Positions 2,087 through 52,719 of a DNA stretch of 60,827 nucleotides are shown one piece after another. A program made the translations under genes and the position numbers. The DNA lies in the NCBI GenBank assembly GCA_016213175.1, contig JACRBF010000029.1:1-60827 (forward strand), written 5' to 3'. Position 1 is the first letter of the stretch; every line of letters starts with the position of its first letter. Below the pieces are notes generated by a model. The model worked only from the letters and a program-made list of their open reading frames with translations, made no database searches and had not been told where the DNA came from. This stretch comes from Chlamydiia bacterium (GTDB lineage Bacteria > Chlamydiota > Chlamydiia > Chlamydiales > SM23-39).

Positions 2087-3229
2087 TCATACTGTTTCTC
2101 TGACGTCTTTCTTCAATCCGATGAGTCCTAGGATCATGGCGATAAAGGCGAGGAAATAGAAGAGTCCGGACATGCCGAGAAGGGACATGGCGATGGGGGC
2201 GAGAAGAGGCCCTGCAATTGCGCCGAGGCCGTAGGAGAGGACGAATCCGCCTGTAGCGGCCACAATCTGGTGATCTGCTACCTTTTCGCAGGCGTAGGCC
2301 ATGCTGAGGGGATAGATCGTAAAAGAAAACCCGCCGAAAAACCATCCGAAGATTGAGAGAAGCCAGGGAGACTGGTGATCGATCAGGGCAATTGCGACGC
2401 CGAATAGGGCTGTCATGAATGCGGACACATTGAGAGCTCTGCGTCTATCTGTTTTGTCGGCCCATTTGCCAATCGGCCATTGAAAGCTTAAGCCTCCAAA
2501 AATAATGACGGCCATTAAGGTTCCGATTTCAGACAGTCCCATGCCGATCACTGTTGCATAGACAGGGACAAGGCCATAGATCGCTGCTAGGAGCATGCCG
2601 GAGATGATGCCGCCGAGAAAGCCTAGAGGAGAAATACGGAATAGTTGGGAGAGATTGAGTCGGACGGAGCAGTCGATTTTAGGTTCAGGGGATTTCCATA
2701 GAGAAATAGGAAGTACGGAGAGGGCGGAGAGAAAGGCGGTGATGCAAAAGGGGTAAATCGATCTTGGGTCGGAAAGATTGAGGAGAAACTGTCCTGAGGA
2801 AAGAGCTGCATAGAAGACGGCGAGATAGATGGACAGGACCCCCCCGCGTAAGTGGGGTGGGCTTTGGATTAAGAGCCAGCTTTCGATTACGATAAAAACG
2901 CCTGCCGTACACACGCCGCATAGGAGGCGCAATAATCCCCAGTAGATCGGCTCGATCCACATCCCTTGCGCTAAGACGAAAAGGGTGGAGAGGATCGCAA
3001 AGGTGCAAAAGGCACGGGACAGGCCGACTTTAGCAATCCATCGGTCGAGCCAGAGGGAACCGAGGAGGATGCCTGCATAGAGTGCAGAAGTGACTGCGCC
3101 GATGGTTTCGGTGGGATAATGTTCCATTTCCATACGAACTGAAACGAAGGTATTAAAAAGGCCGCTTCCGAGGATGAGGAAGGTGAGGCTGAGGAGGGGG
3201 GCTGCGAAGATGCGGATGAGTTGTAACAT
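2087..3229 (-). CDS. MFS-type transporter
   Basis: 380 aa, about 12 hydrophobic helices, MFS-like loop motifs (e.g. LDRWIAKVGLSRA between TM2 and TM3). Substrate unknown. Confidence 0.8.
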   Translation of the reverse strand: MLQLIRIFAAPLLSLTFLILGSGLFNTFVSVRMEMEHYPTETIGAVTSALYAGILLGSLWLDRWIAKVGLSRAFCTFAILSTLFVLAQGMWIEPIYWGLLRLLCGVCTAGVFIVIESWLLIQSPPHLRGGVLSIYLAVFYAALSSGQFLLNLSDPRSIYPFCITAFLSALSVLPISLWKSPEPKIDCSVRLNLSQLFRISPLGFLGGIISGMLLAAIYGLVPVYATVIGMGLSEIGTLMAVIIFGGLSFQWPIGKWADKTDRRRALNVSAFMTALFGVAIALIDHQSPWLLSIFGWFFGGFSFTIYPLSMAYACEKVADHQIVAATGGFVLSYGLGAIAGPLLAPIAMSLLGMSGLFYFLAFIAMILGLIGLKKDVRETV

Positions 3230-3400
3230 GGGGGATGATCCTGGAGTGTTTCCAAAATCTCATAGTGTCTAAATTGCTTGTTTACTGAAATTAGATTTTA
3301 TAAGTAATTGACAGTTAGATGCATGAATTATTTTAAATAAAGATTGAAATAAAACGTAGTTAAATTTAATAATTAAGTTAGATTTAATTTCGGTTTGTTT

Positions 3401-5590
3401 ATGTTTTTAAAATTAAAAGAAACTCTTTCTCTGCAAGAGTGTATGGATAATTTAGCAGCGATTGCTGAGATCGATATGGAGCATCCGTCACGGTTGGGGA
3501 TTATCCAGGGTAGGAAATTGGTGACTGACGAGGAGGAATTACCTCTTGGGGGTTCCGTGCAGTGGTTGAGCGAAGAAGGGGCTGAGCCGATTTTCGAGAT
3601 TTTAGATAAGACGTATCGGGGCATTCATCAACATCTTCTTTTTCTCTACGAAGATCCGGAAAGCGATTGGGATAACAAAAAAATGGAAACGGGTATGGCA
3701 GCCGTTATGACGTTGGTAGGAGAGTCTGCCAATAAAATGGATCGGTATTTAGCTTATCGCTTGGGTGTACCTGATCTAGTAAAAATTGCAGAAAGGGAAG
3801 AGTTCAAAGCGCTGCAGAGGTTCTATCTTCATCACTTTCAGAAAAAAATCCAGGGCGGCATTGCAGGAAGCCAGGTGGGCGACGAGGGTTGGGAGAGGGG
3901 GCAAGAGGCGGTTTTGCCTGTGGGGGACGGGTTAAAGGACTTCGAGACGGTACGCCAAGATAAGGAATATGAGCTTTTTTACATCCGCAATGAAGAGGGA
4001 AAACCTTATTTCAATACGGCGCTTCTACGCAATATCAAATTAAAGGTAGATCTCGCTTCTCAGGCAGAAACTTTTGAGGAAGATCCATTGCTGAAAGTAC
4101 GCGCGATGCAAGATCGGGATCTTCAGGCATCGGCCAATCAGATCTTGGGCGCTTATCATGCAGAGATTGAAGAGTTTTTTAAGATTGTTAAGAGTGCGGA
4201 GGGTAATACTCTTGCTCGTGAACTCAGGCAGGGGATCATGGCTCTTTTTCTTGCTGCTAATCCGCACAACTTATTGCAAAATACGAATGGCAAGAGTTGT
4301 TTACAATACTTTAATGATTTCCATGCATTTTTACGAAACTGTTTGAAGACGGGCGAATATCAAAAGTGGATTGCCTATCCGCCCGATCGGAGCGATAAGA
4401 TGGCCCATGTACTCTTATCCTTAGTGCATGGATTGTGCCGCAGTCTTTTTATGCGTGTGGGAGGCGTAAGACAAGAGTCTGTTGGGCTCATTCATCGGAC
4501 GATGCGTAGAGGCGAGGAGGGGAGCCAGGGACTGGCGAAGGGGCAAGAGAGCGAGACGGTGTGGAATCAATTTCTCAGAGAAGATGAGAAATTGAGATCG
4601 TTACTTTTGCAATTTCCGAATGGTCCGCTCTTTAAAATTCTCGACGTCATTCGAGAAGAGCAGGATGAAAATACGGCGATTCCATTCGATCCGATCGGAC
4701 AGGGCAATCTCCCTTCGCGGATCTATCAGATAAGTTACCAGGGCAGACAAGTGGACATATTGCGGCTTGCAGCGCCTATCATTCAATCGGTGATCAATAA
4801 AGCGGATGTGGTAGATGAATTCCGAGGGTTTCTGCGCTCTAGAACGTCAGGGAGCGCCAAAAAACACTTGATTGTCAATTTACAAGATCGCACTTCATGG
4901 AGGGAATTTTCGCGGGTGCGCGCTCTAGAAAGCCTACAGAAAAACGCGGAGTTCGGCCATCAAATTTTTGTGATGACGCTGCCTAAAGATACCGATTTCT
5001 ATTATCAAAATAATGAATATCTCAACCCCTCTAAAGCGGAGGATTTTTTGTCTGCCCTCAAATTGCAAGTGCAAGGGGGAGAGAGGACGGGCTATGGATT
5101 TCCTCCTTTATGGAAACAGGGCGATATTATGCATTGTGTAGATTTGATTTTACCACTGATCCATACCCAGTTTTTCCATAGCAAAGAGACTCTTTCTCGT
5201 AGAAATCGGGAAGATTTTATCGAAATTTTTTATCAGTTTCTCATCTTGCAGGCGATTCTGCACTTGATGCCTGATTCGATCAGCTTTACCTGTAAAGATG
5301 CTGTTGATACGGGGGCTGCGGAGTCTGCCGCATTTTACGGTTTTTTAAAGCTTTTGAGGAGTGATTCTTTAAAAACAAAAGAGGAGCGCGATTTTCTTCT
5401 CTGGCTCCTCTACACACCTGCGCTCTTCATGCGAGAGAGGGCGATCGATCCTGAAAGGCTGAATCGGGCGCTTGCGATGCTGGAGAGATGTGATGCAGAA
5501 TTATCGACGCATCGAGACGCTATTATGAGGAAGCTGGCAGAGGATAGAGGGTTTGACGCTTTGAAGACCCTTGATGCCATCCATCTTTAG
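3401..5590 (+). CDS. large hypothetical soluble protein (about 729 aa), no recognisable domain
   Basis: Long uninterrupted ORF with normal composition. First ATG at 3401 (the ORF track starts at TTG 3395). Helix-rich by eye, no TM segment, no catalytic motif I can name. Confidence 0.7.
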   Translation: MFLKLKETLSLQECMDNLAAIAEIDMEHPSRLGIIQGRKLVTDEEELPLGGSVQWLSEEGAEPIFEILDKTYRGIHQHLLFLYEDPESDWDNKKMETGMAAVMTLVGESANKMDRYLAYRLGVPDLVKIAEREEFKALQRFYLHHFQKKIQGGIAGSQVGDEGWERGQEAVLPVGDGLKDFETVRQDKEYELFYIRNEEGKPYFNTALLRNIKLKVDLASQAETFEEDPLLKVRAMQDRDLQASANQILGAYHAEIEEFFKIVKSAEGNTLARELRQGIMALFLAANPHNLLQNTNGKSCLQYFNDFHAFLRNCLKTGEYQKWIAYPPDRSDKMAHVLLSLVHGLCRSLFMRVGGVRQESVGLIHRTMRRGEEGSQGLAKGQESETVWNQFLREDEKLRSLLLQFPNGPLFKILDVIREEQDENTAIPFDPIGQGNLPSRIYQISYQGRQVDILRLAAPIIQSVINKADVVDEFRGFLRSRTSGSAKKHLIVNLQDRTSWREFSRVRALESLQKNAEFGHQIFVMTLPKDTDFYYQNNEYLNPSKAEDFLSALKLQVQGGERTGYGFPPLWKQGDIMHCVDLILPLIHTQFFHSKETLSRRNREDFIEIFYQFLILQAILHLMPDSISFTCKDAVDTGAAESAAFYGFLKLLRSDSLKTKEERDFLLWLLYTPALFMRERAIDPERLNRALAMLERCDAELSTHRDAIMRKLAEDRGFDALKTLDAIHL

Positions 5591-5771
5591 CTCGACTTTG
5601 CAACTTTTTAGCCTGCTGGCCTATCCTATTTGCTCTCGGACGTTTGGCCATAGGCCAAACTAGTCGATTTATTTAAACGGGAAGGGGTTTCTAACCCCTT
5701 CCCGTTTAAATAAACGTCTCCGAGAGCAAATATGCCGAGGTCAGCAGGCTAAAAAGTTGCAAAGTCGAGCT
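5589..5771. repeat. 183-bp nested palindrome (family D) filling the convergent intergenic space
   Basis: Outer arms of 30 nt are perfect (agctcgactttgcaactttttagcctgctg / reverse complement at 5742-5771). Middle arms are tatttgctctcgga / tccgagagcaaata. Inner 19-bp arms surround a 3-nt loop. An extra ggccataggcc mini-palindrome occurs only on the left side. Confidence 0.9.
5671..5711. terminator. 19-bp stem / 3-nt loop hairpin, candidate bidirectional terminator
   Basis: atttaaacgggaaggggtt tct aaccccttcccgtttaaat, with A/T-rich flanks on both sides. It lies between the convergent genes ending at 5590 (+) and 5771 (-). Confidence 0.5.
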
Positions 5772-6982
5772 TAGGGTTTTGATTCTTCGATGAGCCCTTC
5801 GTTATAGAGTTTGATCGAATTGGTAAGCGATTGGGAATTCCTGAGGAGATCTGCGAATTGCTTTTTGAAGTATTGGCTTTCAGCGATGCGCTCTTTTTCT
5901 GTGCTATTTTCCGCCCGTTCGAGAAGTTCGGCGAGTCTACCGAGCGACGTGGTGACGGCATCGATTTCTCCATCGAAATAGGTGCGAAATTCTTTCGGTG
6001 AATCGAGCGCTTTTAAGAGATTGGCTCTTTTCGTACGGCTTCTCTGCCAATGCTTGTCGTATTGAAACAGGACTCCGTAGTGGTTGATATCGTTCATCAA
6101 GGTGTTTGCTTTGCTAAATAGGGAGCTGAGATGGAGGTAGAAATCGTCTTGAGTGATGAATTTGCCGAGAGTGCCTGATCCTGAGGAGATATCGTGGGTG
6201 ATTTGATTGAGATTGTGCAGGAGGGGGATTCCTATCTTATTGAATGTGCGGACAGCTGTATTGCACTGCTCTGCAAGAGCGGAGACTTTATGGAGAAGTT
6301 CTTCATCGGAGAGGCTTGAGTGAATGAGGCTTAAATTTTCGTTGAGAAGATCCGCAGAGGTGCGCAGTGTAGGGATAATTTTTTCCGATTCGATGGCAGC
6401 GAGCGAGCGGTCTATTTGGGAAAGGGTTGTATTGAACAGTTGGATTGAAGCGCTTAAAGGGGCGCTATTTTCCCTAAACCAGGAATCGAGTTGGACGACT
6501 GTACCCTCTATCCGATTGGCTACTTTCGTGATTTGATGGAAAGTATTTTCTAGCGGATCGATGGAATTGGCGTAGATGACTTCGTCTGTGATCAGGCGGG
6601 CTTTTTGTGCGGCTTTGGGAAGGATAGCCACCGATTTTTCTCCCATGAGTCCTGTGGAGCGTACGGCGATCTCGTCTGTATCGTATACAGTGACGTTAGA
6701 ATCGGTTTTAAGGACGAGCTCATAGAAATAGATGCGTCCCATCTCATCGGGCGTCGATCTGGCATCCTTGATTTCGCGGATATGGATCACCTCTCCTACC
6801 GGTTTTCCTGCGAAGGTGACGCGGGTTCCTGCCGTGAGCCCTGCAATGTTGGTGAAGCGAACATAAAGCGTTTTTTTCCCATCTCCTACTTTTGGCTCTA
6901 AGAAGAGGATCATGGCCACAACAATCGTTACCGCGGTGACGATGAAAAGACCGATGAGGATGTTTTTCATCTTGTCGGTCAT
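5771..6982 (-). CDS. mlaD: MCE/MlaD-family substrate-binding protein of an Mla-like ABC transporter
   Basis: N-terminal TM helix, MCE-domain-like segment (YVRFTNIAGLTAGTRVTFAGKPVGEV), long helical C-terminal region. 4-nt overlap with the upstream ATPase gene. Confidence 0.75.
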   Translation of the reverse strand: MTDKMKNILIGLFIVTAVTIVVAMILFLEPKVGDGKKTLYVRFTNIAGLTAGTRVTFAGKPVGEVIHIREIKDARSTPDEMGRIYFYELVLKTDSNVTVYDTDEIAVRSTGLMGEKSVAILPKAAQKARLITDEVIYANSIDPLENTFHQITKVANRIEGTVVQLDSWFRENSAPLSASIQLFNTTLSQIDRSLAAIESEKIIPTLRTSADLLNENLSLIHSSLSDEELLHKVSALAEQCNTAVRTFNKIGIPLLHNLNQITHDISSGSGTLGKFITQDDFYLHLSSLFSKANTLMNDINHYGVLFQYDKHWQRSRTKRANLLKALDSPKEFRTYFDGEIDAVTTSLGRLAELLERAENSTEKERIAESQYFKKQFADLLRNSQSLTNSIKLYNEGLIEESKP

Positions 6983-10212: not shown

Positions 10213-10637
10213 TGATATTCTCTCCATTGCTCCTTAAGAAGAGCGATTTTTGTCCTTAGAGGGTGGTGGGGCGTTAAACGTTCTTCTGCTTCTGAAAGCG
10301 CTTTGAGAGCATCCCCTCCGTTGCGCAGTGAAAGATAGCATTCCGCGGCGTGGAAGTGGGGATAGGGATCGCTTTTTTGTAATAAGGCGCTCATCGCCCA
10401 GGCATGGAGCGCATCGATATATTTCCCCATTTCCTGAAAAGTGGCGCCTAGACCGAACCAAAAGCGAAACTCGGTAGGGCGTTTTGTGCAAAGAACGAGA
10501 AATGCTTTCAAAGCCTCGTTCCAATGCCCACCGTGATAATGGGAAAATGCGTAAGAATAAAAAGTTTCAATGTTCTCTTCCACGGGACAAATTGGGCTAT
10601 CTGGGGATCTGGTTCTTAATGAAAGTATCGCTTTCAC
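10209..10637 (-). CDS. lcrH: T3SS class II (translocator) chaperone, LcrH/SycD family, TPR
   Basis: TPR repeats with family-typical residues: WFGLGATFQEMGKYIDALHAW and PYPHFHAAECYLSL (compare FHAAEC in LcrH/SycD). The start is uncertain: GTG 10637 overlaps the upstream ORF, and GTG 10583 is the alternative. Confidence 0.85.
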   Translation of the reverse strand: MKAILSLRTRSPDSPICPVEENIETFYSYAFSHYHGGHWNEALKAFLVLCTKRPTEFRFWFGLGATFQEMGKYIDALHAWAMSALLQKSDPYPHFHAAECYLSLRNGGDALKALSEAEERLTPHHPLRTKIALLKEQWREYQ

Positions 10638-11187
10638 GTCTCGTCGCTCGCAATATCTCAGACAACGTATTCATCATGCTCTGCAGCCGAGTGAGCGTGG
10701 GTTGGATTTCTGTGGATACGGTTGATTGGATTTGAGATCTTAGGCGGCTATTGTGTTCGCTGATGGACGCTTTAATTTCTGTGAGTTGCTCTTTTGTTAT
10801 TGTTTTTGTATCACTGCTAATGGGGAGTGAGATGCCATGCTTTTCTAATTCGATGACAGAGCTGCGTATCTTATCGGTAATGGCATGAGAGCTCTTATCG
10901 GATGGAAGGGCCGTTAAAGAACTACTCAGAGTAAGGAGGAGGTTGCTGACTGCAAGATCTTGCTTGACAGCTTTTGAGAGTTCTTGAATTTTTCTCGTTT
11001 CCATTTGTTCCTTGGCCAGACCCAATTGAACCGCTGCTAAAGGGATATTAGGAAAGCCCGTGCGGGCAACCCCCTGAACGCGGGAAGATAGTTCGTCTAT
11101 TTGAGACGGTTGAATCGGAGAAGCTACTAGGGGAGGAACAGCTGCTTCAACTTTTTTGCTTTTTTCAATAGGATCGATTCCTGGCAT
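10597..11187 (-). CDS. hypothetical protein, first gene of the translocator operon (196 aa)
   Basis: ATG with a strong SD (aaggag, 7-nt spacer). Ser/Thr/Gln-rich, helical, no TM segment. It occupies the position of the hypothetical gene that precedes the second lcrH copy in Chlamydia (from memory). Confidence 0.5.
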   Translation of the reverse strand: MPGIDPIEKSKKVEAAVPPLVASPIQPSQIDELSSRVQGVARTGFPNIPLAAVQLGLAKEQMETRKIQELSKAVKQDLAVSNLLLTLSSSLTALPSDKSSHAITDKIRSSVIELEKHGISLPISSDTKTITKEQLTEIKASISEHNSRLRSQIQSTVSTEIQPTLTRLQSMMNTLSEILRATRRESDTFIKNQIPR

Positions 11188-11240: not shown

Positions 11241-11249
11241 ATTATACCA
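11241..11249 (-). promoter_or_regulatory. candidate extended -10 box (TGgTATAAT) created at the left terminus of repeat B1, facing the translocator operon
   Basis: The minus strand reads cacgttTGGTATAATatgg, about 55 nt upstream of ATG 11187. No good -35. Purely sequence-based. Confidence 0.3.
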
Positions 11250-11405
11250 AACGTGATTCAATACCCGGATTTGGGCTGATGTGAAGTTTACCAGGTTAAA
11301 CGATCCTAAGCCGCTCAATATTAGAAATATGTGTCATTTTACGATCGTTGGACCAAGAGGTTTTGACACAGCCGAAATCCCAATTCTTGCATCACGTTCT
11401 GTATG
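11243..11405. repeat. Family B palindromic element, long form (~163 bp), diverged copy
   Basis: Termini are tataccaaacgtgattcaatacccggatttgggct ... agccgaaatcccaattcttgcatcacgttctgtat. The internal module (ccaggttaaacgatcctaag ... acgatcgttggaccaagagg) is shared with the 28962-29126 copy. Confidence 0.85.
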
Positions 11406-11560
11406 TAATCGGGTATATACGACTTTCTTTATATGACTCTCTTCTGGCATAAAAAAAACATGACAAAGTATATACTTGTTCCTCCTCAAAGGCGCTCAAA
11501 GCAAATCGATTCAAATCCTCTCAAATCGAATAAAAAAGCGGGGTTAATATTAAGTCAATA

Positions 11561-14542: not shown

Positions 14543-14551
14543 AAAGAGATA

Positions 14552-14630
14552 TATACCGAACGTGATTCAAGAATTGGGATTTCGGCTTTGACACAGCCGA
14601 AATCCCAATTCTTGAATCACGTTCGGTATA
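14552..14630. repeat. Family B palindromic element, short form: perfect 36+7+36 palindrome (79 bp)
   Basis: tataccgaacgtgattcaagaattgggatttcggct ttgacac agccgaaatcccaattcttgaatcacgttcggtata. The arms are exact reverse complements. Confidence 0.95.
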
Positions 14631-15502
14631 TACCAACTCCAAGAAGAGGGCTCTGAGCGAGGAAAGAGCTTCTTTCTCACGGTGTCTGCATCGGGTAGGG
14701 CGTCGTATAGCTCTGTTAAAGTTAAATTCGTTCTTTGCGTATCGCTAAAGCAAAAATAATCGTCTTCATGATCGATCATTCGATCTAGGAACCTCTGATC
14801 AAGAGGTTTCATTTTGCATTTCCCGAGACTTTCTAGCTCTAGCTGGAGAGTGGGAGTTCCAATGATTTCCAGCATAAGAGCAGATTGGAGAGCCGCTGGG
14901 ATCACCTCTTCCTCAAGGCGTGTCCAGGCCATGCGGCGCTCGGCGAGGCGGAGCATTGGATTTTCCATTTTGTTCGTAAAGTCACGGAGATGGCGCGCGC
15001 TATATTTTTGGAGCAGGTCGTTGTAGTAATGATATTGGGCAATCGCAGGCAAGAGGGCTTTGATCGGAGCTGAAGGATGGATTTGACGTAAAGCGTCTAA
15101 GGGGAGGTCTTGCACATGGATCTTATGCGCTTTCAAAAAATCTTGAATTTGTCCCTCTTTCCAGTCCTGAATCTCTTTCAATGCATCGGCTTTCGCCTGT
15201 GCTGCGAGATATTGGTTGTGTAGAGAGAGTGAGGCGGTTTGCAGATGGATGAAGCCCGATTGCAGAGGAACTGTAGCAATAACGAGTCCGATCAGGAGGA
15301 AGGGGGCGATGGGGGGGAGCAGACCAAAGGAGATCGAGATAGCGAGTGTCACAATTGCGAGAAATGCAGCAAGGCAGACTTTAGAGGCTAGATTGGTGAG
15401 ACGGCTCTTGGTTTTTAGGGTGCTTGCAATGTCCTGAAGGTTCTCTGTGATGTGGCGGTTAATTTGCGGCAGGGTAGAGACTTGAGTGGATGTAACAGTC
15501 AT
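14567..15502 (-). CDS. Inc-like membrane protein (bilobed hydrophobic domain), 311 aa
   Basis: Residues ~40-85 form two closely spaced TM segments (VCLAAFLAIVTLAISISFGLLPPIAPFLLIGLVIATVPL), the hallmark of chlamydial inclusion membrane proteins. The last 21 codons and the stop lie inside repeat B2. Confidence 0.55.
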   Translation of the reverse strand: MTVTSTQVSTLPQINRHITENLQDIASTLKTKSRLTNLASKVCLAAFLAIVTLAISISFGLLPPIAPFLLIGLVIATVPLQSGFIHLQTASLSLHNQYLAAQAKADALKEIQDWKEGQIQDFLKAHKIHVQDLPLDALRQIHPSAPIKALLPAIAQYHYYNDLLQKYSARHLRDFTNKMENPMLRLAERRMAWTRLEEEVIPAALQSALMLEIIGTPTLQLELESLGKCKMKPLDQRFLDRMIDHEDDYFCFSDTQRTNLTLTELYDALPDADTVRKKLFPRSEPSSWSWYIPNVIQELGFRLCQSRNPNS

Positions 15503-16482: not shown

Positions 16483-17667
16483 ATGGCAAAAGAAACTTAT
16501 CAGAGAACGAAACCGCATGTGAACATCGGTACGATCGGTCACGTTGACCACGGTAAAACGACTTTGACTGCTGCAATCACAAAGATCTTGGCAGATAAGG
16601 GGTATGCGAAATTCCGTGACTATGCCTCGATTGATAATACTCCTGAAGAGAAAGCGCGTGGAATTACGATTAACGCGACGCACGTCGAATATCAGACAGA
16701 CAAGCGGCACTACGCGCACGTCGACTGCCCAGGCCACGCCGACTACGTAAAAAACATGATTACGGGTGCGGCTCAGATGGATGGTGCGATTCTCGTCGTT
16801 GCGGCGACCGACGGACCGATGCCTCAAACGAAAGAGCATATTTTGCTTGCCAAGCAGGTTGGTGTTCCTGCGATCGTCGTCTTCCTCAATAAGATGGATA
16901 TGATCGGTAAGGGAGATGAAGAGCTTGTAGAACTTGTCGAAATGGAGCTGACAGAGCTTCTTGAGTCTAAGGGCTATAAGAACGTGCCTATTATTCGCGG
17001 CTCGGCGTTGAAAGCCCTGGAAGGCGATCCAGAATATGTGAAATCAATCCTGAAGTTGATGGAGACTGTGGATGAGAAGATCCCAACTCCTGTTCGTGAA
17101 GTGGATAAGCCGTTCCTGATGCCCATCGAAGACGTGTTCTCGATTTCTGGTCGGGGTACCGTTGTAACGGGACGCGTAGAGCGGGGTAAAATCCGTGTGA
17201 ACGATAAAATTCAGCTCGTTGGTATTCGCGATACGCGCGATACGGTGGCTACAGGCCTAGAGATGTTTAATAAAACTCTCGATGAAGCGTTGGCTGGAGA
17301 AAACGTGGGCGCTCTGCTCCGCGGGATTGAAAAAGACGACGTAGAGCGTGGCATGGTGCTTGCAGCTCCTGGTAGTTGCACTCCTCATACCCAGTTCCAA
17401 GGAACCGTGTATATCCTTACGAAAGATGAGGGAGGCCGTCATAAGCCATTCTTCACCGGGTATCGTCCTCAGTTTTATTTCCGTACGACCGATGTAACGG
17501 GAACAGTTGAGTTGCCTCAAGGTACCGAGATGATCATGCCAGGCGATAACGTGGTTTTGACTGCAACGTTGATTTGTCCGATCGCCATGGAAGAAGGAAT
17601 GCGTTTTGCAATTCGCGAAGGTGGCAGAACGATCGGCGCTGGTACTGTATCCAAGATTCTCAAATAG
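16483..17667 (+). CDS. tuf: elongation factor Tu
   Basis: 394 aa with [21 protein letters not shown]. Very close to chlamydial EF-Tu sequences. SD ggagga upstream. Confidence 0.99.
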
Positions 17668-28932: not shown

Positions 28933-29169
28933 GAGGCAGTTGCAAAATTGCCTCGTCTCCGTATACCGAACGTGATTCAATAATCGGATTTGGGCTGATG
29001 TGAAAGTTCTCTAGGTTTAACGATCGTAAGTTGTCCAATATTAGAAATATGGGGGCAACTTACGATCGTTGAACCTAGAGGCTTTGACACAGCCGAAATC
29101 CCAATTCTTGAATCACGTTCGGTATAAAATCGATGATTTTGCGGGGATAAGGGGTTTTGTCACTGCCTT
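28933..29169. repeat. Family C-like palindromic element interrupted by a family B element
   Basis: 28933-28960 (gaggcagttgcaaaattgcctcgtctcc) and 29127-29169 (aaatcgatgattttgcgggg...ttttgtcactgcct) align with the reverse complement of the 8558-8672 copy (gaggcagttgcaaaactcaccgctcccag|aaaatcgatgatttt...). Confidence 0.55.
28962..29126. repeat. Family B palindromic element, long form (165 bp)
   Basis: The termini are identical or near-identical to the 14552-14630 copy. The internal nested palindrome is ctctaggtttaacgatcgtaagttg ... caacttacgatcgttgaacctagag. Confidence 0.9.
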
Positions 29170-30137: not shown

Positions 30138-30599
30138 TTAAAAGGCTCTCTTTAAGAGATTTGCTGGGAATAGGGTGTTGCTGGTCAAGTTTTCATAGAG
30201 TGTTGGAAAATTTCCCGGCGTGAGGGTTTGTTCAAAATCGTCTACCAGGATAACAATCGATTTCCCTTCTTGCAAGGCTTTGATAAGCTGGAGCGTGAGA
30301 TCTTCGGGCAGCTTGAGTCTCATCCCTCCTTCAAGAGGCGAAAGAAATGTCTCTAGCGTCTCCTTGTCGATGAAGAATTTAACGCTAAGGGGCGCCTTAC
30401 CGTGGAATTTGTATTGTGCGAGACTCAGGAAGGAGATGATGCCTGATTCGGTGTTGAGGAACTCCAGCCTGAGAGGGGAACCCTGAGGATCTGTATAAAG
30501 GAGTCTTGCCGCATCAAAGACCCTGTCCCCGGAGGAGATCGTATCGAGCGTCCAGGGATTTGAAGTTGTGCATGAGGCGAGCAGAAGCAGGAGCGCCAT
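30138..30599 (-). CDS. putative lipoprotein (153 aa)
   Basis: MALLLLLASC is a lipobox-type signal. Its stop abuts the tal ATG. The alternative start ATG 30662 (8-nt overlap with the upstream small gene) would add a 21-aa repeat-encoded extension. No good SD for either start. Confidence 0.5.
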   Translation of the reverse strand: MALLLLLASCTTSNPWTLDTISSGDRVFDAARLLYTDPQGSPLRLEFLNTESGIISFLSLAQYKFHGKAPLSVKFFIDKETLETFLSPLEGGMRLKLPEDLTLQLIKALQEGKSIVILVDDFEQTLTPGNFPTLYENLTSNTLFPANLLKRAF

Positions 30600-30640
30600 T
30601 CTCCGAAAAGCGACGAAATCCAAATCTGTGAACAGTCTCT
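30600..30640. repeat. Family A solo arm (~41 bp)
   Basis: ctccgaaaagcgacgaaatccaaatctgtgaacagtctct, compared with tcctccgaaaagcgacgaaatccatatccgttaacaatctct in the full copy. Confidence 0.7.
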
Positions 30641-30654
30641 GCAAGACTAGTCTC

Positions 30655-30867
30655 CTAATCATGGGAAAAAGTGCCCGAATTCAGCGACACAATCACAACG
30701 CCGATGGCGGCGGTGATGAGGGCGCTGCCGGCAAATACCCAGTTTTGCCAGTGGTCGCTCGTACTTTCTTGCGCAGAATTTGCGGCGGCGGCTCCTGTTT
30801 CCTCTGCATAGAGCTTGGGAGTGGAAGCGAGAATCGAGAGGATAAATAGAAAGGCGATTCTTTGCAT
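30655..30867 (-). CDS. small exported membrane protein, paralog S3 (70 aa)
   Basis: Signal peptide MQRIAFLFILSILASTPKLYA, Ala/Ser-rich linker, W-containing glycine-zipper TM (WVFAGSALITAAIGVVIV), C-terminal GTFSHD. Strong SD ggagg. Confidence 0.6.
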   Translation of the reverse strand: MQRIAFLFILSILASTPKLYAEETGAAAANSAQESTSDHWQNWVFAGSALITAAIGVVIVSLNSGTFSHD

Positions 30868-30883: not shown

Positions 30884-31585
30884 TTAGAAATTTTGATAGA
30901 TTTTTTTGCGCCCCTCTTGCAGTACGAGGAACTGCCAGTAAGCGCCTAAATTTTCATGCCCTTGCAAAACTTTATGCTGTAGCTCCACCCACTTTGCTTC
31001 TTGCAACTGAGGCGTCATGGTGGCTGTCTCGGAGTCGATCGAGGTAAAAAAGGTTTCGAATTGCGATTTTTCTTCGGGGGACAGCACAATCAAAAGATGG
31101 GGAATCAAAGAGAGCGATTGAAATGCTTGAACAAAGGCTTTTTGGAAAGTGAGGAAGTCGTCTTTAGAGGAGGCACCTGTCAGAATATAGGCGTGTTTTC
31201 CTTTTACAAGGATGAGTTGGAGCATTTTAATGTCGCCCCAGAGCGCTTTTGTCGTAATTTCGGTGAGCCTTGCCTCTCCTGCTTCAGTCATGAATTTCCC
31301 GAGATCTCTCCAAGTTGTATTTGGTTCTGCGAGATGAATCTCCCGGACTGCTTTGAGATACTGCTTGGCAGAGACGTCGATCTCTTCTGTGGCTAAATTC
31401 ATCGAGGGGCGGAAGTTAGAAGAGCCTTTGCCAAGAAACCCAACGCGTACGTAGGAAGAGAGTTCTTTCGCAACGGCACATTCCCAACCTGCTGGGGGAG
31501 TGAAGAGAGGGATGGGAGGAGATGTGTCGTCTGCTGCTAAAATTCCGAGGTACAAGAGAAGGGTAATGAGAGTGTATTTTATCAC
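30884..31585 (-). CDS. hypothetical exported protein (about 233 aa)
   Basis: The ORF 30884..31837 is trimmed to GTG 31585 (SD aagga 4 nt upstream), because residues 1-84 of the long ORF are encoded by repeat A4. The trimmed protein starts with a signal-like VIKYTLITLLLYLGILAA. Confidence 0.6.
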   Translation of the reverse strand: MIKYTLITLLLYLGILAADDTSPPIPLFTPPAGWECAVAKELSSYVRVGFLGKGSSNFRPSMNLATEEIDVSAKQYLKAVREIHLAEPNTTWRDLGKFMTEAGEARLTEITTKALWGDIKMLQLILVKGKHAYILTGASSKDDFLTFQKAFVQAFQSLSLIPHLLIVLSPEEKSQFETFFTSIDSETATMTPQLQEAKWVELQHKVLQGHENLGAYWQFLVLQEGRKKIYQNF

Positions 31586-31592
31586 GAGATCC

Positions 31593-31769
31593 TTAGAGAC
31601 TGTTAACGGATTTGGTTTCTGTCGATTTTCGGGACCTTTTGAGCCGATTTTCGATGCAAAATTGGGGGGCAATATCAACATCCAGTATATTGCCCCCCAA
31701 TTTTGCATCGAAAATCGGCCAAAAATCCTCCGAAAAGCGACGAAATCCATATCCGTTAACAATCTCTTA
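31593..31769. repeat. Family A palindromic element, full long form (177 bp)
   Basis: Two ~80-nt arms in inverted orientation around the centre caacatccagt. Termini are ttagagactgttaacgg / ccgttaacaatctctta. The core is gccgattttcgatgcaaaattggggggcaatat. Confidence 0.9.
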
Positions 31770-31994
31770 GTGGGCATGAGATGAATCATTATCGGGAATA
31801 AGAGCGCACAGCAAAGCAATGCCAACGCCGAGACCAAGTCCCCATCCCATCATCGAGAGTACCGTTGCATCCCTACTGCTGTAGCCCGCGCTTTCCCCTC
31901 TTCGGGACGAGCGCTGATTTTTTGGCTCTTGCGTGACGCCCGGCAGGGACCAGATCGTCATGCACAAAAGGACAAGTAGCGTGAATCTGAGCAT
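31767..31994 (-). CDS. small exported membrane protein, paralog S2 (75 aa)
   Basis: Trimmed to ATG 31994 (SD ggaagggg). Signal-like MLRFTLLVLLCMTIWSLPG, polar linker, MGWGLGLGVGIALLCAL glycine-zipper TM, C-terminal DSSHAH. Its TAA stop is the terminal TTA of repeat A4. Confidence 0.55.
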   Translation of the reverse strand: MLRFTLLVLLCMTIWSLPGVTQEPKNQRSSRRGESAGYSSRDATVLSMMGWGLGLGVGIALLCALIPDNDSSHAH

Positions 31995-32077
31995 AGATCC
32001 CCTTCCGTTTTTCTTATTGCACACTGCTATAGTTTCCAGCAATCTGCCAAGAAGCGTAAAGGGGATATGCTTTAGAC

Positions 32078-32293
32078 TTAGTGAGAAAAGGTCGAAGGTG
32101 AGCTGGACGCTGACGCTGCGGTAATACCTATTACGACAGCGAGTACAGCAACGGCTCCAAGTCCGATTCCCCAAGCCATGCTATTAGACCCGGCATCTGC
32201 AGAAGCGGTAGCCGCTTTCCCAGTGGTTTGTGCTTGAGCAGCTGTGCTGCCGAGCAAGGTGAAAACAGCGAGAAGAGTTGTGAGTTTTTTCAT
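32078..32293 (-). CDS. small exported membrane protein, paralog S1 (71 aa)
   Basis: MKKLTTLLAVFTLLGSTAAQA signal peptide, Ala/Ser linker, AWGIGLGAVAVLAVVIGI TM, C-terminal STFSH. SD gagg 7 nt upstream of ATG 32293. Confidence 0.6.
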   Translation of the reverse strand: MKKLTTLLAVFTLLGSTAAQAQTTGKAATASADAGSNSMAWGIGLGAVAVLAVVIGITAASASSSPSTFSH

Positions 32294-32450
32294 AGTTAAC
32301 CTCAAGGTTGGAAGTGAAAATCATCAGGGTTATAAGACCCGTACTTCTCACGTGTAAACTTTTTTTACAATTTTTTCCAGCGGATAGTTTGTAAGGATAG
32401 GAGAAAAATAGGAATTCAAGATAGAATTGAGCTTTTTAGGGAGAGTGAAA

Positions 32451-50707: not shown

Positions 50708-51610
50708 TTATTTAAATGATTGCAAATGACACGCAACTCGATGATTAGGAGCTACTTCTCGAAAGATGGGCTTTTCTTGGCGGCATTGCGTTGTTGCGTA
50801 GGGGCATCTAGGAGCAAAGGGACAGCCTACGAAAGACGGAGCTGTCTGTGACAAAGGGGAGTGGGCTGGAGAGCGAGAAACGCTACGGATTTTCGGGATA
50901 GAGGAGAGGAGAATCTGGGTATAGGGATGGAGAGGTGTATGATAAAGAATCTCTGTAGGTGCTGTTTCAACAAATTCCCCTTGATACATGACGGCGACCT
51001 CTTCTGAGATGTAGCGAACCATGGAGAGGTCGTGGGAAATGAAGAGGTAGGTAAGCTCGAGTTCTTTGCGCAGACGAAGGAGGAGATTGACGATCTGAGC
51101 TTGGATGGAGACGTCAAGCGCGGAGATAGGTTCGTCGCAAACGATGAAATCGGGGTTGAGAGAGAGCGCTCTAGCAATGCCGATGCGCTGCCTTTGCCCG
51201 CCGCTGAATTCATGAGGAAATCGATTTTTGGCATTTTGAGGCAATCCCACAAGATCCAGAAGTTGTTCAACCTGAGATGGCATGCTGTGGATGATTGATG
51301 GCTCTTCGAGGATGTCGCCTACGGTCATCCTAGGATTGAGTGAGGAGAAAGGGTCTTGAAAGATCATCTGCATACGGCGCTGTAGATCTTTACGTGATTT
51401 GGCAATGGGACTGCCTTCGAAGAGGATTTGCCCTGAAGTGGGCTGAATGAGTTGCAGGAGCAGGCGGCCTAGTGTTGATTTTCCGCAGCCGCTTTCGCCT
51501 ACAAGTCCTAGGATCGTCCCTCGCTTCAGGAAAAAAGAGATGTTTTTGACGGCGCTGAGCGTCGTTTTACCAAGCGTATAGATTTTGGAGAGATTGTGTA
51601 CTTCGATCAC
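50708..51610 (-). CDS. oppF: oligopeptide/dipeptide ABC transporter ATP-binding protein OppF
   Basis: Walker [18 protein letters not shown], Walker B FIVCDEPISALD, and the C-terminal oligopeptide-ABC extension. Trimmed to GTG 51610 (SD aagagg 5 nt upstream), because the longer ORF reads into repeat A5. Confidence 0.9.
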   Translation of the reverse strand: MIEVHNLSKIYTLGKTTLSAVKNISFFLKRGTILGLVGESGCGKSTLGRLLLQLIQPTSGQILFEGSPIAKSRKDLQRRMQMIFQDPFSSLNPRMTVGDILEEPSIIHSMPSQVEQLLDLVGLPQNAKNRFPHEFSGGQRQRIGIARALSLNPDFIVCDEPISALDVSIQAQIVNLLLRLRKELELTYLFISHDLSMVRYISEEVAVMYQGEFVETAPTEILYHTPLHPYTQILLSSIPKIRSVSRSPAHSPLSQTAPSFVGCPFAPRCPYATTQCRQEKPIFREVAPNHRVACHLQSFK

Positions 51611-51780
51611 TAGACCTCTTGCGTAATTAAGGTTCTGTCGACTTTCCTGTTCTTTTGAGCCGATTTTCGATGCAAAATTGGGGGGCAATATACCGGCGAT
51701 ATTGCCCCCCAATTTTGAAATCGAAAATCGGCCAAAATAATCCGGAAAATCGACGAACCCTTAATTACGCAAGAGGTCTA
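51611..51780. repeat. Family A-related palindromic element (170 bp) with perfect 22-bp terminal inverted repeats
   Basis: tagacctcttgcgtaattaagg ... ccttaattacgcaagaggtcta. The internal core gagccgattttcgatgcaaaattggggggcaatat / atattgccccccaattttg is shared with 31593-31769. Confidence 0.95.
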
Positions 51781-52719
51781 CTTATACCTCCAGCAAGCAG
51801 TATTGCCGAAAAAGGGGGGATCTGTTTGGCAGATGGGGGCTGCGTGAGGGCATCTTTCCGCAAAAGCGCATCCTTTGGGTGGATCGAGGAGGTTTGGCGG
51901 CATCCCTTCGATGACTTGTAAGGGGCCTTTGTGGGTGGGGAGCGATTGCAAAAGCATTTGCGTATAGGGGTGCTGCGGACGTTCCAGGACCTCTTGAACA
52001 GAGCCCTGCTCTACGATTTTACCGGCGTAGAAGACAAGAATGCGATCGCACGTTTCAGCGACGACGCCGAGATCGTGGGTGATGAGAAGGAGGCTTGTAG
52101 AGGCATCTCTTTTACGGAATAGGTCGAGAATTTGTGCTTGCACTGTGACATCAAGAGCGGTGGTAGGTTCATCAGCAATCAGCAGGCGGGGGCCGCAAGC
52201 AAGGGCAATCGCGATCAAAACCCTCTGCCGCATCCCTCCGCTGAGCTGATGGGGATATTGTTTAAGCCTCTCTTCTGCCTGAGGCAGTTCCACTTGACGT
52301 AAGAGAGTGAGAACCCGCGCGCGCGCATCGAAAGTGCCTTTCTGGACTATTTTGTGGTGTACGAGCGCCTCTTCGATCTGGGCGCCAATCGGCATTGTTG
52401 GATTGAGCGCGCTCATCGGATCTTGAAAGACCATACCGATTCGTTTCCCTCGGATTTTTTGGAGCTCTTTTTCGCTTTTTTGCAAGAGATTTTCTCCTTC
52501 GAAGAGGATAGAGCCTTCGATATTGGATGCAGGACTCAATCGGGTAATTGCCTGAACGGCAGCGCTTTTCCCACAGCCACTTTCTCCGACGATGCCGACT
52601 GCCTCACCTGTGTTTACTGTAAAAGAGATGCCACGCACTGCGTGTAGCTTCTGTCCGTAAAGAGAAAAGGTGACGGAGAGATCTTGGATTTTGAGGAGAG
52701 GGGCTGTGGGTGGCGTCAT
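51778..52719 (-). CDS. oppD: oligopeptide/dipeptide ABC transporter ATP-binding protein OppD
   Basis: Walker [17 protein letters not shown], Walker [16 protein letters not shown] 52719 lies 2 nt after the oppC stop codon (52724-52726). The TAG stop is the terminal 3 nt of repeat A5. Confidence 0.9.

Follow-up and report, generated by a model that had tools for sequence, protein, structure and literature searches.

A palindromic MITE family at gene boundaries of chlamydial genomes, one of whose end types matches those of resident IS5-family insertion sequences

Copies of the repeat in the window

Six copies or fragments of a palindromic repeat, designated family A, are dispersed over the window (the whole 61-kb stretch of DNA that was analysed), all of them at the places given in the preliminary description. 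Five have the terminal sequence defined below as type T1 and one (51612-51779) has type T2. The reference copy lies within 31593-31769.

136 to 231, unstranded: truncated T1 copy, comprising one arm, half of the apex and the loop CAACATCCAGT, which is the loop of the reference copy
1563 to 1669, unstranded: short T1 copy of 107 bp, a palindrome without the apex; TTA duplication at 1560-1562 and 1670-1672
30598 to 30640, minus strand: solo beta arm with a T1 end, truncated at ...TTTTCGGAGA
31583 to 31585, minus strand: GTG start of the gene downstream of the reference copy, 10 nt past the element end; ORF of 233 codons (ctctaaggatctcGTG)
31593 to 31595: left TTA of the target-site duplication of the reference copy; the right TTA is at 31767-31769
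31596 to 31766, unstranded: reference full copy with T1 ends (GAGACTGTTAACGGAT...), 171 bp (family range 168-172 bp); alpha arm on the 5' side of the plus strand, beta arm on the 3' side; apex GGGGGGCAATAT-loop-ATATTGCCCCCC
51612 to 51779, unstranded: full-length T2 copy (AGACCTCTTGCGTAA...); ACT duplication at 51609-51611 and 51780-51782
58548 to 58596, minus strand: empty site at the overlap (ATGA) of the gatA stop and gatB start
60734 to 60827, unstranded: T1 copy that runs off the window end; TAA at 60731-60733, beta arm first on the plus strand

The palindrome of the reference copy is built of two 84-nt arms (31592-31675 and 31687-31770), which are 85% complementary and spaced by 11 nt; folded as RNA, the element reaches -116.5 kcal/mol (z = -17.3 versus shuffles). 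The copy cut by the window end is 97% complementary to 31673-31769. A 21-mer from the core has 6 matches in the window (0.03 expected), and a 17-mer from the terminus likewise has 6 (0.24 expected). The T1 and T2 copies of the window have the genome-specific apex GCAAAATTGGGGGGCAATAT in common.

At the reference copy, the upstream small ORF ends with the right TTA, which reads as a TAA stop codon on the minus strand, and the downstream GTG is preceded by TAAGGA, composed of the duplication and flanking sequence. The T2 copy, with the same core as the reference but different termini, is placed between two opp/dpp-type ABC ATPase genes; the TAG stop of the upstream gene overlaps one end of the element, and the downstream gene starts at a GTG (51610-51608) that overlaps the opposite duplication and follows the terminal-repeat sequence AAGAGGTCT. 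The short copy at 1563-1669 has lost its apex between TTTTGA direct repeats, a deletion form also found in L092 (L-numbers denote genome loci or metagenome contigs from the scans described below), and is situated between two tandem PF04020 paralogues. Its upstream stop codon, TAG, comprises the TA of the duplication and the G of the terminal repeat; the pre-insertion stop at 1560-1563 can be reconstructed as TAA, and the frame is unchanged. At the truncated copy, a XerC/D-like recombinase gene starts at an ATG (234-236) that shares its first base with the TAA at 232-234, and the solo arm ends directly 5' of the ATG of a lipoprotein-like ORF (MALLLLLASC...).

Several further features of the window were observed. 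Three small, similar, secreted or membrane ORFs on the minus strand (30655-30867, 31767-32060 and 32078-32305), each with a signal-like N-terminus, a Gly/Ala-rich hydrophobic stretch and a C-terminus ...SH(A)H/D, are interleaved with family A copies. The tandem paralogues around the short copy (1171-2064) are two PF04020 proteins with 4 TMS, and in L058 (656-2988) an element likewise lies between tandem paralogues, of ~1 kb and 80% identical. A second palindromic MITE-like family, B, is represented at 11243-11411, 14550-14632 and 28962-29132, with ends TATACCGAACGTGATTCAA; its long forms measure ~170 bp, while the short form of 83 bp has 41-nt arms that are 98% complementary. Family B is also present in the chlamydial loci L220, L170, L032 and L041. 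Finally, a 183-bp palindrome that is single-copy in the window (5589-5771; 34-nt outer arms 97% complementary, with nested inner hairpins) fills the spacer of the convergent ORFs 3395-5590 (plus strand) and 5771-6982 (minus strand).

Anatomy and distribution of the family

Full copies of family A, 168-172 bp in length, consist of terminal inverted repeats of ~20 nt and a conserved palindromic core of ~130 nt. From the outside in, each half of the core presents GTCGATTTTCGG, an arm-specific segment (GGGTTCTTTTGAGCC in the alpha arm, GGGATTATTTTGGCC in the beta arm), GCCGATTTTCGAT, a variable inner stem and the apex (GGGGG..ATAT, with a loop of ~8 nt); CGATTTTCG boxes also occur in the core. In 39 of the 47 oriented copies one arm is alpha and the other beta, which gives the element a conserved left/right polarity. 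Within one genome, the loop can face either way with respect to the arms (L058 versus L078). ORFs that run through the element are read-through artefacts only, and the element is non-coding.

Over this one core, the outer ~20 nt fall into three discrete types.

T1 end: GAGACTGT.../GAGGGTGT..., with a 3-bp TAA/TTA duplication
T2 end: AGACCTCTTGC..., AGACCTCTTGCRTAA, with a 3-bp ANT duplication
T3 end: GAACCTATCTC..., GAACCTATCTCAGTAAAA, with a 2-bp duplication

The T2 and T3 termini have the pattern GA-AC-T-T in common with T1, and all three end types can occur together in single contigs (L132).

Two further loci were noted. In L032 (DATIHO010000115.1, ~2709-3966), a group II intron of ~1.26 kb interrupts the apex stem in one family A copy; it was recognized by RF02001 (124 bits) together with frameshifted ORFs for RVT_1 and GIIM, and the copy has kept its TTA duplication intact. 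In L117 (Ga0247727_10005044, ~619-779), an element of ~160 bp with T1 ends of the window type and a TTA duplication has a different, non-palindromic interior and adjoins the stop codon of a proC-like gene, which suggests that the T1 system moves more than one kind of cargo.

Scanning of species-representative genomes with a 16-base core pattern yielded at least 115 loci, and iterated nhmmer on those loci and the window recognized at least 65 places, including at least 45 full-length copies. Searched with the window terminus, metagenomes provided ~40 further copies, none identical to the window's own. In total, family A comprises at least ~100 copies in at least 25 MAGs and metagenome contigs of Chlamydiota/PVC, and the expectation that further copies would exist outside the window was thus confirmed. 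The labels of the carrier MAGs are Chlamydiota, Chlamydiae, Chlamydiales, Parachlamydiales and Rhabdochlamydiaceae, together with several Verrucomicrobia; the assignment to chlamydiae follows from how the MAGs of relatives are labelled and from the genes present (V-ATPase, PknD-like kinase, Neochlamydia IS). At least eight loci with family A are located on the complete 2.2-Mb chromosome OY970369.1, and no match was obtained in the plasmid collection searched.

Environmental chlamydiae are known for their insertion sequences, and in the literature searched we found no description of MITEs or palindromic repeats of chlamydiae. Family A is a new MITE family of a well-known type. Its copies may be useful as markers to type strains and to follow the exchange of DNA between chlamydiae with amoeba hosts in common. 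They also mislead gene callers, which extend ORFs through the element. The only public contig that contains the window's transaldolase exactly (L116, Logan SRR12113407, 2523 nt) terminates at the edge of the 31596-31766 copy, and short-read assembly evidently fails at the repeat.

Transposition footprints and partner insertion sequences

Among the listed matches in which both ends are present, identical 3-bp flanks were found for 28 of 38 T1 copies (26 TAA/TTA, one TGA and one AAA) and for 6 of 10 T2 copies (AGT, ATT, AAT, ATA, ACT), while 9 of 12 T3 copies have identical 2-bp flanks of various sequence. The TA duplication proposed in the preliminary description is replaced accordingly by one of 3 bp, being TTA at two window copies and ACT at 51612-51779; a 2-bp (TA) parse of T1 fails, since the window copy would then have TT at its left and TA at its right side. 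A series of deletion forms (170, 107, ~90, 47 and 27-30 bp) retains the terminal repeats and duplications in every member.

The junction of gatA and gatB differs between loci: neither the window nor L131 has an element there, and in L115 a T2 copy fits exactly into the space that separates the gatA stop from the gatB start. The element also differs in position in other syntenic pairs of loci.

To judge by its sequence, family A is a MITE by every structural criterion tested: it is short and non-coding, it has terminal inverted repeats and a duplication of fixed length, and its copies are dispersed, with both filled and empty sites. An autonomous element with the same ends and duplication was found for T1 only (Neochlamydia S13 L237, L169, L238 and L186). 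The original interpretation as a dispersed palindromic MITE is therefore upheld by the terminal repeats, duplications, deletion derivatives, the filled and empty site and the cognate ISs. Copies occur elsewhere, their sites are not conserved orthologously, and they are not fragments of an IS.

The cognate ISs were discovered by looking just inside solo T1 ends for transposase N-termini. They are IS5-family elements of 843-857 bp in chlamydial contigs, with T1-like ends and TAA/TTA duplications. In Neochlamydia sp. S13 (AP017977.1, L237), an IS of 857 bp reads TAA, GAGACATTCTCTGAATTA...TAATTCAGAGAATGTCTC, TAA; ~17 of the first 18 nt of its terminal repeat are the same as in the T1 end of the L054 and L106 copies (GAGACAATCTCTGAATTA). 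L169 contains a complete IS of 843 bp with the terminal repeat GAAGCTGTCTTAAAACC and TTA on both sides, and 13 of 16 positions of this repeat match the T1 variant GAGGCTGTCCACAAAC. Its transposase, when joined across an A9 run, scores 229.5 bits with NF033580 (IS5 family; cutoff 110) and contains PF13340 and PF01609; homologues include a protein named by NCBI as IS5 family transposase of Neochlamydia sp. S13. L238 contains the L169-type IS twice more, flanked by TAA and TTA duplications, and one of these two copies adjoins a family A end. In L186, the exact terminus of the window (TAA followed by GAGACTGTTAACGGAT) is succeeded at 58 nt by an IS5-type N-terminus, ...YTSDLSNKEWDRI (MRAKKRKAYTSDLSNKEWDRI), at which the contig ends. 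The IS630/Tc1-mariner partner that had been suggested is thus replaced by an IS5-family transposase (NF033580). The matching IS5 subgroup, with a 3-bp TNA duplication and GAG... ends, is presumably IS1031/IS427. Owing to the shared ends and target duplication, the T1 copies are grouped with MITEs derived from the IS5 family.

In two unrelated contigs, the insertion site of an IS5-family IS is precisely the TTA next to a T1 end of family A (L169 111-953 and L238 16604-17446), and the family's own duplication seems to be a preferred target of the IS. In L238, the same sequence of at least ~100 nt (GGGATCGTTCA.AGATAACTTTTACAATTT...) follows both IS copies (~10493-10640 and 17447-17600), seemingly in opposite orientations, and may be a further repeat to which the IS is drawn.

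The window yielded no IS, and the loci examined yielded none with T2 or T3 ends; the transposases for these end types are probably related to that of T1, given the similarity of the termini. A search of all loci for inverted terminal-repeat pairs 0.4-3.5 kb apart produced no IS, the matches being chance or ordinary genes: the candidate in L083 is cdaA/ybbR, those in L205, L121 and L210 are Rnf genes (in which GAGACTGTTAACGG encodes ETVNG), and the one in L032 is the copy split by the group II intron. Similarly, no transposase was detected among the multi-copy proteins of the 818 ORFs of chlamydial loci. The subterminal sequences of the ISs found have no obvious resemblance to the family A core.

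Taken together, family A is very probably a non-coding MITE of ~170 bp that is moved in trans by IS5-family DDE transposases of the same chlamydial genomes. The transposase would recognize the ~20-nt terminal inverted repeats, and cut and paste the element in trans into a short AT-rich target, which is then duplicated; for T1 this target would be TAA/TTA. In compact genomes such targets would mostly be found at gene ends, often as the stop codon itself, and if only harmless insertions survive, copies would build up precisely in the gaps that separate a stop codon from the following start. With the G of the T1 repeat, a TAA/TTA target may restore an in-frame TAA or TAG, while a T2 end begins with (T)AG or TGA and the opposite T2 end would place AAGAGGT at Shine-Dalgarno (SD) distance from a start codon. 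The long palindrome, presumably kept symmetric at the DNA level, would tend to lose its center, giving rise to the short, mini and solo forms.

Gene junctions, the palindromic core and known systems

The preliminary description placed every copy between co-directional genes, which is the case in the window; family-wide, ~16 of the copies listed are in co-directional, 10 in convergent and 11 in divergent contexts. The element is strictly intergenic throughout, with no preference for gene arrangement. Similarly, its orientation with respect to transcription, fixed in 5 of 5 cases in the window, is 11 to 5 in the family as a whole, which is not significant.

The abutment on stop codons, start codons and ribosome-binding sites is real and general across the family. 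For upstream ORFs of at least 70 codons that face an end, the stop codon is usually part of the duplication or the terminus. At T1 ends, the offsets are -3 (TAA) in eight cases, -2 (TA and the G of the repeat, forming TAG) in five and +8 (TAA inside GTTAAC) in four; at T2 ends they are -1 (T and AG) in three and -4 in three. Downstream of T2, a start codon is 1-5 nt away in 7 of 9 ends, including that of the opp-type operon of the window, behind the Shine-Dalgarno-like ...AAGAGGTCT; the T2 end thus has AAGAGGT at 1-5 nt from the start. At T1, the duplication and flank often form TAAGGA or TAAAGGAG.

The junction geometry is thus systematic, as implied by the earlier term "gene-boundary-wired", but it is better explained by target choice and by ends that regenerate stop codons and SD sequences. 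We infer that the apparent wiring results from the choice of TAA/TTA, which is common at gene ends, and from purifying selection; a regulatory role is not needed. The ends illustrate how a compact genome can tolerate a transposon: the stop codon is regenerated, and one end type brings a ribosome-binding site.

The symmetry of the element was analyzed in 43 aligned copies. In all, 94.2% of the cells pair, and both sides have changed in 48 of 65 pairs; none of 500 shuffles reached the observed values, and slid controls collapsed. The mismatches include 67 G·T and 62 A·C pairs, without a G·U excess. Compensatory changes that lack a G·U bias, together with the 11-to-5 orientation, indicate that the symmetry is a property of the DNA. 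On this evidence from aligned sequences, the palindrome appears to be a DNA-level feature rather than a selected RNA of one strand. Quasi-palindrome correction by template switching is a known mutational process, and the symmetry is compatible with it.

The interior of family A is more conserved than its ends, which is the reverse of most MITEs. Between genomes, the median core identity is 76% and the maximum 94.6%, compared with ~66% for gatA and gatB (window versus L115). Near-identical cores may have different ends, as in L101 (T3) versus L115 (T1) at 94.6% and L036 (T3) versus L074 (T1) at 93.2%, and the end type agrees with that of the nearest-neighbor core in only 27 of 43 cases. A single core under three end types is more than simple derivation from one IS can account for, and the combination, with its different duplication lengths, is unusual and deserves an explanation. 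Each of several processes could contribute to the conservation of the core: gene conversion between dispersed copies, selection on cis-acting sites, horizontal spread and host function.

The strongest alternative to a MITE mobilized in trans builds on this conservation. According to this alternative, the core would be a module useful to the host (an mRNA hairpin for translation coupling or mRNA stability, or a site for a host protein), which is selected and carried by the three end types. Such a module would account for a core conserved across MAGs whose housekeeping genes are only ~66% identical, for an alpha/beta asymmetry kept in 39 of 47 copies despite palindrome-correcting forces, and for copies inside essential operons (gatAB, opp). 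It would also give meaning to the arrangement of a stop codon in one terminal repeat and an SD sequence in the complementary one, as the two ends pair in the transcript and a terminating ribosome could hypothetically unmask the SD. The alternative is nevertheless unlikely, since the orientation relative to transcription (11 to 5) is not significantly biased, copies also lie between convergent and divergent genes, the G·T and A·C counts (67 versus 62) favor the RNA of neither strand, and the insertion positions are not orthologously conserved; selection for transposability and horizontal spread could also conserve the core. We consider it rather less probable still that the ~130-nt core is a selected, asymmetric DNA or RNA hairpin module captured repeatedly by three transposon end systems. 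One possible purpose of such a core would be translation coupling at operon junctions, the terminating ribosome freeing the SD, or the binding of a conserved host protein; if so, it would represent a mobile, exchangeable operon spacer.

A very improbable explanation is that family A is a REP/BIME associated with an IS200/IS605-type RAYT, or that it is conserved in place as a structured regulatory RNA or bidirectional terminator. The extreme stability of the hairpin, the compensatory changes in 48 of 65 pairs, the G+C-rich apex stem flanked by runs of A and T, and the group II intron in the apex of one copy would all suit a reading of this kind. REPs, however, measure 20-40 bp, bear a GTAG/CGTC tag and lack both terminal repeats and duplication, a description that family A does not fit, being 170 bp long and having both. 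No Rfam family was matched at threshold, the sole hits being sub-threshold generic miRNA hairpin models; neither a promoter-like nor a terminator-like site was called by the scan inside 31593-31769, and there is no G·U excess. Only 3-4 T follow the apex stem, short of an intrinsic terminator, and the copies inside the gatAB and opp operons argue against strong termination and are hard to reconcile with a bidirectional terminator. The polymorphic insertion sites also speak against conservation in place. The weakest candidate, a Correia or IS630-mariner-type MITE with a TA duplication, would be suggested by the TA contained in the ends T(T/A)AGAG...CTCT(T/A)A and by the Correia-like size and palindromic shape, but for T1 it is refuted by the 3-bp duplications (28 of 38, including the TGA and AAA cases, which cannot be parts of an inverted repeat) and by the ISs with matching ends, which belong to the IS5 and not the IS630 family, and it is hardly credible for the family.

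The preferred reading, a MITE of IS5-type partners, can be placed among known systems. Family A is most similar to IS5-derived bacterial MITEs, with which it shares repeats that start with GAG, the 3-bp TAA/TTA duplication and ISs of 843-857 bp with NF033580 / PF13340 and PF01609. It differs from them in that the whole element is a near-perfect palindrome, the interior is unlike the subterminal regions of the ISs, and two further end types exist. The likeness to Correia and ERIC repeats claimed in the preliminary description holds as a functional analogy, but not as membership. Correia elements (CREE/NEMIS) of Neisseria are likewise palindromic intergenic repeats of ~100-160 bp, with long and short forms, end subtypes and positions in transcribed spacers. 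They have a TA duplication as well as promoter and IHF sites, and we know of no transposase for them. In contrast, family A has a 3-bp duplication, an IS5 partner, an unrelated sequence and no promoter-like sites found. ERIC, compared by description, is also an imperfect palindrome of similar size, intergenic and transcribed, with cross-genus conservation beyond neutral; to our knowledge it has no clear terminal repeat, duplication or partner IS, all of which are defined in family A. Finally, the Tourist MITEs of the PIF-Harbinger superfamily share with family A a 3-bp (TWA) target duplication. The PIF-Harbinger transposases are related to IS5 but are eukaryotic and need a second, Myb-like protein, whereas the partners of family A are ordinary bacterial ISs.
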